DNA of 64,000 nt from a virus (lineage: Duplodnaviria; Caudoviricetes). A model generated the notes under the pieces. That model ran no database searches. It was given only the letters and a program-made list of their open reading frames with translations, and was not told the DNA's origin. Within the stretch, counting starts at the first letter, position 1, and every line of letters starts with the position of its first letter. Below are positions 21,010 through 32,150 of this stretch, piece after piece. The stretch lies in IMG/VR virus record IMGVR_UViG_3300050343_000159, one strand, 5' to 3'. A program made the translations under genes and the position numbers.

Positions 21010-21199
21010 GCTAAGCCCAACCTTTATCGGTAACAAACCTATTGTAGTCAAAACCAATACCCTTGTTAAGTACCAGTTCTCTAAGTGGAACACCAACTTA
21101 ACAGGGGTATTTCTTTGTGGTATGATAACAGGGTAAACAAAACTTTACATAAATAAACCAGTTACTTGTGTTGGTTTCAACATAAGTGTTTATACTTAC

Positions 21200-21318
21200 T
21201 CCCCTTAAACCAAGACCTATAGGGAGTCTAAAAACGTCTTTAATACCTGTATCTAAGGGTGATACAGGAATAGTAAAACCATCATTTCCCTGATGATCTT
21301 ACTTTTAAGTACATTACA
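21200..21318 (+). ncRNA. structured psbA 5' leader, candidate PhotoRC-II motif
   Basis: Hairpins AGAC/GTCT, CCTGTATC/GATACAGG (21246-68) and CATCA/TGATG directly upstream of psbA; TATACT -10 at 21191. Confidence 0.6.
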
Positions 21319-29765: not shown

Positions 29766-30080
29766 ATGCTATCGACCAAGTATCGGCTTCGGCTTGAATT
29801 TATCTGTAAGTGTATTGCTAGTGGTGAGGAAGTAAAACTAGATGATATGGTTTGGGCACAGAAACTTGCTAAAGCAAATACATCTGCTAATGAGATGTTA
29901 AAGAAAGCAAGACGACAATCTTCTCAAGATATTGAAGAAGGTAGTACCGACGATTTTCTGAATAGGATGGGTTTAGGAGACCCCGATCCATCCAATCATA
30001 AAACGGGGTTTAGTAGTGCTGATGATATCAAGGACTGGTTTAAACAAGACAAACCTAAGGATTGGAGACAGAGGGACTAA
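29766..30080 (+). CDS. conserved hypothetical cyanophage protein
   Basis: MLSTKYRLRLEFICKCI..WAQKLAKAN..DWRQRD. Confidence 0.65.
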   Translation: MLSTKYRLRLEFICKCIASGEEVKLDDMVWAQKLAKANTSANEMLKKARRQSSQDIEEGSTDDFLNRMGLGDPDPSNHKTGFSSADDIKDWFKQDKPKDWRQRD

Positions 30081-30313
30081 TGCAATCAGTAATCTATTCG
30101 AATAAAAGTCAAGAGTGTGAGAGAGCTATCATGCTTCTTTCAAATGTCCATGAAGATTTTCATGAGTATATTCTAGATGAAGACTTTACTGACAAACAAT
30201 TTCATGCAGAGTTCGGTGATACAGCAGAGTATCCACAGATTTCTATTGGGCTGAAACACAGAGGTGGATTGAAAGAAACCCTTCAGTTCATGAAAGATAA
30301 CAATATGTTCTAA
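30080..30313 (+). CDS. glutaredoxin-like protein (degenerate active site)
   Basis: QECER in place of CxxC; EFGDTAEYPQI; HRGG. Confidence 0.6.
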   Translation: MQSVIYSNKSQECERAIMLLSNVHEDFHEYILDEDFTDKQFHAEFGDTAEYPQISIGLKHRGGLKETLQFMKDNNMF

Positions 30314-30315
30314 CC

Positions 30316-30345
30316 TTGACATAAATAGTGTAGAAGTGTTATAAT
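30316..30345 (+). promoter_or_regulatory. consensus sigma70 promoter with extended -10 (also contains ATAAATA)
   Basis: TTGACA 30316-21, 18-nt spacer, TG.TATAAT 30340-45. Confidence 0.85.
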
Positions 30346-30351
30346 AACACT

Positions 30352-30400
30352 GTCGTTCATCAGAGGTAACTCTGACGCAAGTAAGTTGACTCGGAACGGA
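30352..30400 (+). ncRNA. glutamine riboswitch-like aptamer 1 (glnA/Downstream-peptide type)
   Basis: P1 CGTTC(30354-58)/GAACG(30394-98); P2 TCAGAG-GTAA-CTCTGA; CGCAAGTA junction; short AG/CT P3. Confidence 0.65.
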
Positions 30401-30585
30401 GCGTTCATCCTATGGTTGATTTCTTTTTATATACAACACTCAGTTGTTCTGATGCCGATAGCATTATGCTACGGATGAGGAGTAATGATGATCTTAACGC
30501 TCAAGTTAGGATTGAATTGGTGGAGGTTCTAAAAGAATCTACACCAGAGTGTCCATGGGACGCAAAAGGCAACTGAAGGAACGGG
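30401..30585 (+). ncRNA. glutamine riboswitch-like aptamer 2 with expanded, coding P2 loop
   Basis: P1 CGTTC(30402-06)/GAACG(30579-83); P2 TCCTATGG(30408-15)/CCATGGGA(30553-60); CGCAAA junction; AG-GCAA-CT P3; GAAG. Confidence 0.6.
30412..30576 (+). CDS. 54-aa hypothetical protein nested in aptamer 2
   Basis: MVDFFLYTTLSCSDADSIMLRMRSNDDLNAQVRIELVEVLKESTPECPWDAKGN; GGAG RBS at 30398-401. Confidence 0.6.
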   Translation: MVDFFLYTTLSCSDADSIMLRMRSNDDLNAQVRIELVEVLKESTPECPWDAKGN

Positions 30586-30617
30586 GCCTAAAAATCCAAC
30601 TACTTCAGGAGTATCAA

Positions 30618-30752
30618 ATGAAAGTCACGTATCGTGGTGTGTCGTATGACACAGTTGAGTATCAGAACAGACCCCAAGTTACCAAAAAAGTAACTGAAGT
30701 CTATCGTGGTATCAATCACACCGAAACTGTAAAAGTGGAGGTATCAAAATGA
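30618..30752 (+). CDS. DUF4278-like small protein (two YRG motifs)
   Basis: MKVTYRGVSYD...EVYRGINH; AGGAG RBS at 30607-11. Confidence 0.75.
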   Translation: MKVTYRGVSYDTVEYQNRPQVTKKVTEVYRGINHTETVKVEVSK

Positions 30753-30856
30753 ATATACTTGCCATCGAGCAAAGAAAGATTCTCAAGAAAAAAGCTATCA
30801 AGGTAGCTCAACTTGAGTTGACTAAGAAAACACTTGTTTGTTCTAACAACAAGTGA
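30749..30856 (+). CDS. basic 35-aa peptide
   Basis: ATGA-coupled; MNILAIEQRKILKKKAIKVAQLELTKKTLVCSNNK. Confidence 0.5.
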   Translation: MNILAIEQRKILKKKAIKVAQLELTKKTLVCSNNK

Positions 30857-30864
30857 TATAATTA

Positions 30865-30888
30865 AGGGAGGTAATACTCCCTTTTTTT
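30865..30888 (+). terminator. intrinsic terminator
   Basis: AGGGAG-GTAATA-CTCCCT followed by a T run. Confidence 0.75.
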
Positions 30889-31496: not shown

Positions 31497-32150
31497 ATGG
31501 ATCAATCAGAACAGATGAAACCCGGAGCTAAACTGGTATCAGTTACACCTGATGCTGAAAAACATATAGCATTCTGTGCTAGGGTGAGTAATCCAAACAA
31601 CCAGGACAACGAAAAGTTTTCTGGCCTACTAAAGTATTGTATCAAGAATCAACACTGGAGTATTTTTGAACAGGCGTTCATGACTCTAGAGATCACAACC
31701 AACAGGGGTATCGCAGCTCAAATCCTGCGCCACCGTTCGTTCACTTTCCAGGAGTTCTCACAGAGGTATGCCTCTACAGATTTCCTAGGTGAGATTGAAC
31801 TGCCTGAACTTCGTCGTCAGGATGATAAGAATAGACAGAATAGTATTGATGATCTTGATCCTGAACTCATTGATAAACTTGAGAGACAGATGGTAACTCT
31901 CTTTAGTTCTGCCAACTCTCTGTATCAACAGATGTTGTCAGCAGGTGTTGCTAAGGAGTGTGCACGCTTTGTGTTACCTCTCGCAACACCAACTAAAATC
32001 TACATGACAGGCTCAATTCGCAGTTGGTTACATTATATTGATCTGAGATCTTCCAATGGAACTCAGAAAGAACATATGGATATTGCCAACAACTGTAAAG
32101 AGATCTTTGTAGAACAGTTCCCATCTATTGCAGAAGCTATGGAATGGTGA
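31497..32150 (+). CDS. thyX: flavin-dependent thymidylate synthase
   Basis: HWSIFE, RHRSFTFQEFSQRY signature, ECARFVLP, LRSSNGTQKEH. Confidence 0.95.
   Translation: MDQSEQMKPGAKLVSVTPDAEKHIAFCARVSNPNNQDNEKFSGLLKYCIKNQHWSIFEQAFMTLEITTNRGIAAQILRHRSFTFQEFSQRYASTDFLGEIELPELRRQDDKNRQNSIDDLDPELIDKLERQMVTLFSSANSLYQQMLSAGVAKECARFVLPLATPTKIYMTGSIRSWLHYIDLRSSNGTQKEHMDIANNCKEIFVEQFPSIAEAMEW

Follow-up and report, generated by a model that had tools for sequence, protein, structure and literature searches.

Among the RNAs known to sense the nitrogen status of cyanobacteria, glutamine riboswitches are the principal ones, and a considerable fraction of them are doublets. Their presence in T4-like cyanophages, their link to genes of DUF4278 proteins and their frequent tandem arrangement have been published (PMC2864571, PMC9964418, PMC6212724, PMC9481103). 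The described tandems comprise 157 doublets and 4 triplets and were called pseudo-cooperative (PMC9481103); the adjacent aptamers lie a few nucleotides (nt) apart, and no expression platform, cooperativity or benefit was identified for them (PMC5066625). An ON switch was demonstrated experimentally for gifB and for a DUF4278 gene of Prochlorococcus (PMC6212724, Klahn et al. 2018). Binding and inactivation of glutamine synthetase (GS) were shown only for IF17 of Synechocystis (PMC6212724), and the C-terminal residues required to bind GS in Synechocystis are reported missing even in the Prochlorococcus homologues (PMC6212724). Here we analyse a doublet of this type in the viral record IMGVR_UViG_3300050343_000159, a stretch of 64,000 nt from a marine cyanophage (hereafter the window), in which the initial annotation had described two consecutive glutamine-riboswitch-like aptamers at positions 30354-30398 and 30402-30583 (units 1 and 2). 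Covariation replaces this description with another one, in which each half has its partner in the other unit, in a nested and strand-swapped arrangement: the 5' half of either unit is paired with the 3' half of the other. The element is probably a pair of interlocked, not consecutive, glutamine-I cores, of which the outer is canonical and the inner circularly permuted, with one P3 helix in common.

Judged by its sequence, the RNA is a member of the glutamine-I (glnA-type) riboswitch family located before a DUF4278 gene, as had been annotated, and is predicted to bind glutamine. Unit 1 (30352-30402) matches the Rfam family Glutamine (RF01739) with 29.4 bits (E 3e-4 for a search of 701 bases), short of the 35 bits set for gathering. 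This is the sole credible Rfam match in the region, and the Rfam covariance models gave no glutamine-family match at gathering anywhere in the window. The other family that had been expected, RF01704 (Downstream-peptide, glutamine-II), gave no match in the region at E values up to 10. The pseudoknot helix of glutamine-II, with GGAACG in a loop and the 3' strand after it, was not found in the region either; what comes after Y1, the nucleotide next to GGAACG of unit 1, is the CGUUC of unit 2. Membership in glutamine-II was ruled out by this topology and by the missing RF01704 match. The core words annotated for unit 2 are present, namely CGTTCATC at 30402-30409 and GACGCAA..CTGAAGGAACGG at 30559-30584, but its apparent P2 of about 150 nt had not been recognised as what it is, the coding stretch of a 54-codon open reading frame (ORF1). 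In the compact relative L017, RF01739 aligns the entire element from the first CGUUC to the last GGAACG as a single aptamer with 43.6 bits, above gathering, the inner unit being a 38-nt insert in P3. The corresponding insert of the window, 185 nt, exceeds what the model tolerates.

In the solved structures glutamine and metal ions are contacted by C1, G2, the linking-strand G, and the C and G of GGAACG (PMC6698751). Both cores of the window contain all these nucleotides, which are invariant in alignments A1 and A2. Both units read ACGC...GGAACGG, in place of the family consensus ACGG...GGAACGC. In the solved structures a pair links X, the third nucleotide of the linking strand, to Y, the nucleotide that follows GGAACG; in glutamine-II it is C19:G41, and glutamine-I has its equivalent (PMC6698751). 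The change is therefore a flipped pair in an unbroken pocket. The predicted parts of the two cores are as follows.

30354-30358, + strand: CGUUC of unit 1 (a1), 5' strand of the outer P1, pairing with 30579-30583
30360-30375, + strand: P2 hairpin of the outer core, 6 base pairs (bp) with a GUAA loop, covarying between phages
30376-30383, + strand: linking strand CGC (X1 is C30378), then AAGUA, the 5' half of the E-loop; X1 pairs with Y2 (G30584)
30384-30391, + strand: s1, one strand of the shared P3, pairing with 30567-30574 (7 of 8 pairs, one A.G)
30393-30401, + strand: GGAACG of unit 1 (d1), Y1 (G30399) and the linker AG; 30394-30398 pair with 30402-30406 as the inner P1
30402-30406, + strand: CGUUC of unit 2 (a2), second strand of the inner P1, with covariation and a hairpin found de novo by RNAalifold
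30408-30415, + strand: 5' strand of the inner-core P2, pairing with 30553-30560 and holding the AUG of the enclosed ORF
30561-30574, + strand: inner linking strand CGC (X2 is C30563), AAA, and s2 (30567-30574), the other strand of the shared P3
30575-30584, + strand: GAA, the 3' half of the E-loop, then GGAACG of unit 2 (d2) and Y2 (G30584); 30579-30583 pair with a1

The outer core would be a canonical three-way junction of CGUUC (30354-30358), P2, the linking strand, AAGUA with GAA, GGAACG (30578-30583) and G30584. It has both halves of the E-loop (30380-30383 and 30575-30577), and its P3 is the helix between the units and not a hairpin. The inner core would have the same fold in circular permutation, its P1 closed by the 3-nt loop G-A-G and its P2 closed at 30408-30415/30553-30560. 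The helix 30384-30391/30567-30574 would serve as P3 of both, giving a dumbbell with a predicted glutamine site at each end, and the long-range closing pairs C30378:G30584 and C30563:G30399 join the two units, pairings that covariation bears out. In each core P2 comes straight after CGUUCA, with U:A and C:G closing it.

Evidence for the cross-unit pairing comes from doublets gathered by exact-pattern scans of the IMG/VR viral metagenomes, of which 157 unique loci were parsed. Position 5 of a1 and position 2 of d2 form C:G in 150 loci and U:A in the other 7, and the corresponding a2:d1 pair is C:G in 116 loci and G:C in 41; neither has a single mismatch, and pairing of P1 within the units would produce mismatches in 41 of the 157. 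Two of the scans of IMG/VR were set up in opposite ways, one requiring a2 other than C with d1 free, the other d1 other than G with a2 free. Both returned the identical 70 loci, in which the change from G to C in d1 is always accompanied by C to G in a2; since the scans were independent, the covariation of P1 is not an artefact of selection. In 49 unique loci d1 reads GCAACG and a2 CGUUG with a1 and d2 still canonical, and a subset of these has CGUUU in a1 together with GAAACG in d2.

The long-range pairs behave in the same manner. X1:Y2 is C:G, or G:C in 16 loci, with one C.A among the 157; X2:Y1 is C:G and is flipped to G:C in L147 and L182. X1:Y1 pairing within unit 1 would be mismatched in about 20 loci, the side-by-side alternatives giving G.G and C.C. 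AGUA is confined to unit 1, following X1, and GAA to unit 2, preceding the second GGAACG, so a complete E-loop requires the far halves to meet. The segment following AAGUA is complementary to the segment preceding GAA (AGUUG/CAACU in the window), and this shared P3 exchanges to AGUCG/CGACU, AGUCA/UGACU, AGUCU/AGACU and GGaCGG/CCGaCC. In an alignment of 19 compact doublets five of the eight P3 pairs are changed on both sides, and 94% of cells of the nested structure are paired. None of 500 shuffles matched the nested structure in paired fraction, in cells with double-sided changes or in covariation score, and 4 of 500 matched its nine pairs with double changes. Pairs specific to the side-by-side arrangement showed no double change and were broken in the informative rows. 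RNAalifold, run without any hint, predicted the inner P1 hairpin. With the respective helices enforced on the window, the nested fold has -73.3 kcal/mol and the side-by-side fold -68.1, i.e. the nested fold is about 5 kcal/mol better.

Variants of these parts were seen in two other places. A metatranscriptome contig (run X17) carries an outer P2 that differs at 30362-30373 by two deletions and three substitutions, which turn UCAGAG/CUCUGA into UCUAG/CUAGA with the pairing preserved (compensatory). Phage S-CAM7 (L445 547-655) has a compact doublet with the units 4 nt apart after Y1 instead of 2, and GAAAGG in place of GAAGG in the second unit.

Several points weigh against the interlocked structure. 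All four P1 strands of the window are canonical, so that the side-by-side fold can form there too, and the unconstrained minimum free energy (MFE) structure of the window indeed pairs P1 of unit 1 within the unit. The shared P3 of the common 'CCGAC' type contains C.A and A.C mismatches and could be replaced by local 2-bp hairpins. The inner core lacks an E-loop, whose place is taken by AAA and one C. The loop that closes its P1 has just 3 nt, and one of these is needed for the long-range pair. The covariation counts are numbers of sequences and not of independent events, of which about two are identifiable for each P1, two for the long-range pairs and several for P3. Ames and Breaker, as cited by Ruff et al. 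2016 (PMC5066625), found that tandem constructs bind without cooperativity in vitro. The metatranscriptome contigs leave the transcript ends undefined, and glutamine binding, its stoichiometry and the direction of regulation are all inferred here.

Some of these points would suit two ordinary aptamers lying side by side at 30354-30398 and 30402-30583, each folding on itself and acting pseudo-cooperatively or redundantly, as tandem glutamine riboswitches have been described (PMC9481103, PMC5066625). Each unit has all core words in the canonical order, the window permits both within-unit P1 helices and both within-unit long-range pairs, and local Rfam alignments were obtained for unit 1 there and for unit 2 in L021. 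Nevertheless the P1 and long-range mismatches given above fall on the within-unit pairs, the cross-unit P1 pairs are always kept, and no double change backs any pair specific to the single units. Neither unit has a complete E-loop, and many unit-1 sequences are without any local P3. Local 2-bp P3 hairpins (AG-N4-CU), which can be drawn in the window and in the 'CCGAC' type, were rejected, since the commonest type (AGUCGC) lacks them and covariation does not support them. We consider two self-contained aptamers very unlikely. A further alternative is that both folds are used, the local fold of unit 1 forming first and later isomerising to the nested one, with an exchange gated by ribosomes on ORF1 as part of the switch. 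Transcription order favours an early local fold, some 180 nt ahead of the 3' half of unit 2; the MFE structure combines the local P1 of unit 1 with the helix that would occlude the downstream Shine-Dalgarno (SD) sequence; and in 116 of the 157 loci, the window included, all four P1 strands are identical, making both topologies available. In the remaining 41 loci, however, the P1 helices have become orthogonal toward the nested fold only and in none toward the opposite one, which looks like selection against the local fold, and we regard a regulated exchange as unlikely.

The altered core words raise another question, namely whether ACGC and GGAACGG point to a variant aptamer whose ligand is not glutamine, as the score of unit 1 below the Rfam gathering and a G-to-C change in the region of the ligand pocket might suggest. 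As a mark of a new ligand the G-to-C change in ACGG was ruled out, being one side of a flipped pair: its partner changes too, the C:G orientation is that of the glutamine-binding glutamine-II riboswitch (PMC6698751), and one clade has the G:C form at the same position. The ligand-contacting nucleotides are unchanged and the usual DUF4278 gene is downstream, so that a non-glutamine ligand seems extremely improbable.

With the interlocked structure, the locus can be compared to the described systems. It shares with glutamine-I (RF01739) the core words CGUUCA, ACG-N, AAGUA and GAAGGAACG-N and, in the outer core, the three-way junction with P1, P2, a putative E-loop/P3 and the long-range closing pair, as well as the association with DUF4278 and a probable translational ON control through a freed SD. 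It differs in that the two distant ends of a doublet come together to make the phage aptamer, P3 is shared with a permuted second core, the closing pair is C:G and not G:C in most phage copies, and a translated ORF occupies the P2 loop. To glutamine-II the element is similar in the C:G long-range pair, the CGUUCAUCC...GGACGC wording, the DUF4278/YRG gene downstream and an identical ligand pocket; the crystal form of that riboswitch is a domain-swapped dimer (PMC6698751), i.e. the fold tolerates strand exchange between copies. Here, in contrast, there is no pseudoknot, and the swap is in cis, conserved and apparently functional. The tandem glycine riboswitch likewise has two homologous amino-acid aptamers, one expression platform and inter-aptamer contacts, but its aptamers are consecutive and joined by tertiary contacts, whereas here whole strands are exchanged and a helix is shared.

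The published 'tandem' glutamine riboswitches, mostly from marine metagenomes and with core sets 2-3 nt apart, are almost certainly the same objects, though the units described here are interlocked, with a common P3 and a single platform after the second unit. Full-text literature searches, whose coverage leaves out Ames & Breaker 2011 and Ren et al. 2015, found no nested or permuted glutamine riboswitch; the architecture appears to be new, an earlier mention in one of these two papers being possible. An interlocked fold would account for the 2-3-nt 'linker' between the units, would provide the platform that had been missing, and leads one to expect obligatory two-site behaviour. It would be a natural case of a circularly permuted, strand-swapped riboswitch, with a protein-coding gene inside an aptamer helix, its start and stop codons lying within the predicted ligand-binding cores.

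The expression platform and the genes associated with the RNA were assigned as follows.

30412-30576, + strand: ORF1, 54 codons, phrog_504 (E 1e-24), an annotated coding sequence in isolates
30603-30611, + strand: CUUCAG overlapping the SD AGGAG (30607-30611) of the DUF4278 gene, pairing with CUGAAG at 30573-30578
30618-30752, + strand: ORF2, 44 amino acids (aa), DUF4278/YRG (IF17-like), Pfam PF14105 with 28.7 bits
30749-30856, + strand: ORF3, 35 aa, basic, a doubtful gene with an ATGA overlap with ORF2

The helix between CUGAAG and CUUCAG (30603-30608) is present in the MFE fold of the window and was found de novo by RNAalifold on the alignment. When its 5' strand carries A, the opposite nucleotide is U in 30 of 30 loci and never C (0/30); G faces C or U. 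In the outer core the CUGAAG strand forms part of P3, of the E-loop and of the border of P1, and because it is common to both, the helix and the outer core are mutually exclusive. This covarying helix is likely the glutamine-ON platform of the DUF4278 gene. At high glutamine the interlocked fold would be stabilised and CUGAAG kept within the outer core, leaving CUUCAGGAG (30603-30611), with the SD of the DUF4278 gene, free for translation; at low glutamine CUGAAG would pair with CUUCAG and occlude it. By analogy to gifB and the Prochlorococcus DUF4278 gene, glutamine should thus free the SD. A different platform was seen in the clade with the outer G:C pair (Y2 is C), where CUCUUUA directly 3' of GGAACGC pairs with UAAGGAG in the SD region of the DUF4278 gene (L108, L110, L123, L124, L019, L025, L050, L066, L091, L097).

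ORF1 is, by its pattern of sequence change, a real coding gene in register with the RNA core. In isolates it corresponds to T4-like gene cluster 430, 'gp197'. Among 42 homologues the pairwise differences at the three codon positions are 0.44/0.23/0.58 in the body, while the seven final codons, which encode the RNA core, show low values throughout. The stop codon is U(G/A)A of CU(G/A)AAGG in 83 of 89 loci; in the window it is UGA at 30574-30576, in the P3/E-loop of the outer core. The segment from ACGC to the stop measures 8 or 11 nt in 136 of the 138 ORF-bearing loci, which keeps the frame, and 7, 8, 9, 11, 12 or 14 nt in doublets lacking the ORF. The existence of such compact doublets with a short unit-2 P2 (L017, L068, L021, L064, L099 and others) indicates that ORF1 is an insert in the P2 loop. 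The stem of the inner P2 bridges 150-210 nt; its five basal pairs, which show CG/UA/AU exchanges, are preserved in 86-100% of 91 unique ORF-bearing loci. The candidate SD of ORF1 is GGAG (30398-30401), which consists of the final G of d1 together with Y1 and the linker; a linker forming GGAG occurs in 89 of 138 ORF-bearing and 0 of 19 compact loci (Fisher 2e-8, relatedness of the loci ignored). AlphaFold2 on 37 homologues predicted a two-helix hairpin with a predicted local distance difference test (pLDDT) value of 76, and Cys12 and Cys47 are invariant. About 35 other loci have a small ORF within P2 of unit 1 as well (e.g. L010, L011, L015, L018, L023, L033, L107, L115, L116, L118, L125), so both cores of a doublet can house genes. 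It starts straight after CGTTCATC(C), stops at the linking-strand GGACGC, and encodes a hydrophobic N-terminus and a conserved Y-L-K-x-K-V-x-G-x-C end.

The position of ORF1 suggests that it may take part in the switch. Since its SD lies in d1 and the linker and its AUG (30412) in the stem of P2, the initiation region would be buried once the inner core folds, and ORF1 would probably be translated mainly at low glutamine. Ribosomes terminating at its UGA would have to open P3, the outer P1 and the helix occluding the SD of the DUF4278 gene, and through this unwinding ORF1 and ORF2 may be coupled. Either reciprocal or coupled control of ORF1 and ORF2 is expected from the arrangement, and neither is singled out as dominant. 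We tentatively put forward, as a possibility only, that the 'tandem' riboswitches of marine phages are strand-swapped two-site sensors in which glutamine and ribosomes on the enclosed ORF compete for the same strands. If so, the aptamer would be read by the ribosome and the two small proteins produced reciprocally or in a coupled manner, which would explain why side-by-side models found neither a platform nor a benefit of the tandem.

The peptide annotated at 30618 as DUF4278-like with a YRG motif is confirmed by Pfam, the score of ORF2 being above the cut-off of 25.3 bits (E 1.8e-6); it also belongs to phrog_5049 (E 2e-12). Like gifB (IF17; gifA encodes IF7), ORF2 has DUF4278 and YRG motifs and stands behind a glutamine riboswitch, but its 44 aa make it far shorter than IF17, and an interaction of the phage protein with GS is hypothetical. 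By analogy, the product probably acts on host nitrogen assimilation and is possibly an IF17-like GS inhibitor, the least certain step of the scheme. It is plausible, by the same analogy (PMC6212724), that the phage senses host glutamine and tunes GS.

The 'coupled basic peptide' annotated at 30749 exists as an open reading frame with the ATGA overlap, whereas its status as a gene is weakly supported. No significantly similar sequence was found for ORF3. An ORF in S-CAM7 equals it in length and in the ATGA overlap and resembles it in the N-terminal pattern; this is an analogue in position only, and because nothing else supports it ORF3 is listed as doubtful. Relationship of ORF3 to phrog_545 was considered and rejected: BLASTP found nothing, and the resemblance is limited to the N-terminal pattern. 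In most phages the gene following the doublet is phrog_545, with a basic N-terminal helix (MNTLxxIKKQI...) and two YRG motifs, while in the window and in S-CAM7 the YRG-only phrog_5049 is followed by the overlapping basic ORF of 34-35 aa whose start resembles the N-terminal helix of phrog_545 (compared at L005 843-1007, L002 872-1036 and L445 820-921). It looks as if the modules of phrog_545 were split and their order reversed in these two phages, the similarity not being significant.

The module is bracketed by a predicted promoter and a predicted rho-independent terminator, both of which had been annotated and were recovered.

30316-30345, + strand: sigma70-type promoter, -35 TTGACA (30316-30321) and -10 TATAAT (30340-30345), 12/12 match to consensus
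30864-30888, + strand: intrinsic terminator, 7-bp stem at 30864-30883 plus a T-run

The promoter has a spacer of 18 nt, with an extended TG before the -10, and a predicted transcription start at about 30352; its layout is alike in most homologous loci. The terminator is the sole terminator-like site within 2 kb. The module is flanked upstream by a glutaredoxin-like ORF (30062-30313) and downstream by ThyX (31497-32150). The stretch was found in six RNA runs, as contigs that give no start, end or strand of the transcript.

Positions 30374-30654 are kept at about 72% identity in 354 records of Synechococcus and Prochlorococcus phages, a conservation far beyond chance. No Rfam family other than PhotoRC-II, at 21187-21281 with 71.1 bits, reaches gathering in the window. 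From this RNA and the phage-record matches, the source of the window is identified as a T4-like cyanophage. The doublet with its genes is a widely conserved cyanophage unit (354 isolate records), for which we propose control by host glutamine of a YRG/DUF4278 protein and of a second small protein family, and manipulation of host nitrogen assimilation by the phage becomes directly testable. In 401 cyanobacterial genomes the pattern of the doublet junction was no more frequent than its reversed control and gave no doublet-like match, which does not prove its absence. A scan of genome contigs for the junction gave, among the 120 matches listed, only chance ones, and the sole matches to compact triplets were a protein-coding repeat.

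Two further features were observed at the promoter. An inverted repeat, AGTGTTA/TAACACT (30335-30351), spans the -10 hexamer and stops 2 nt short of the riboswitch. A perfect inverted repeat of at least 5 bp is present at this position in 72 of 110 unique homologous loci, compared to about 11 expected from shuffles, and its occurrence at the same place with 42 different stem sequences points to a covarying hairpin. In addition, a motif resembling T4 late promoters, CATAAATA (30320-30327), overlaps the -35 element. If it is used, transcription would start near 30333 and the 5' end of the transcript would carry the -10 hairpin.

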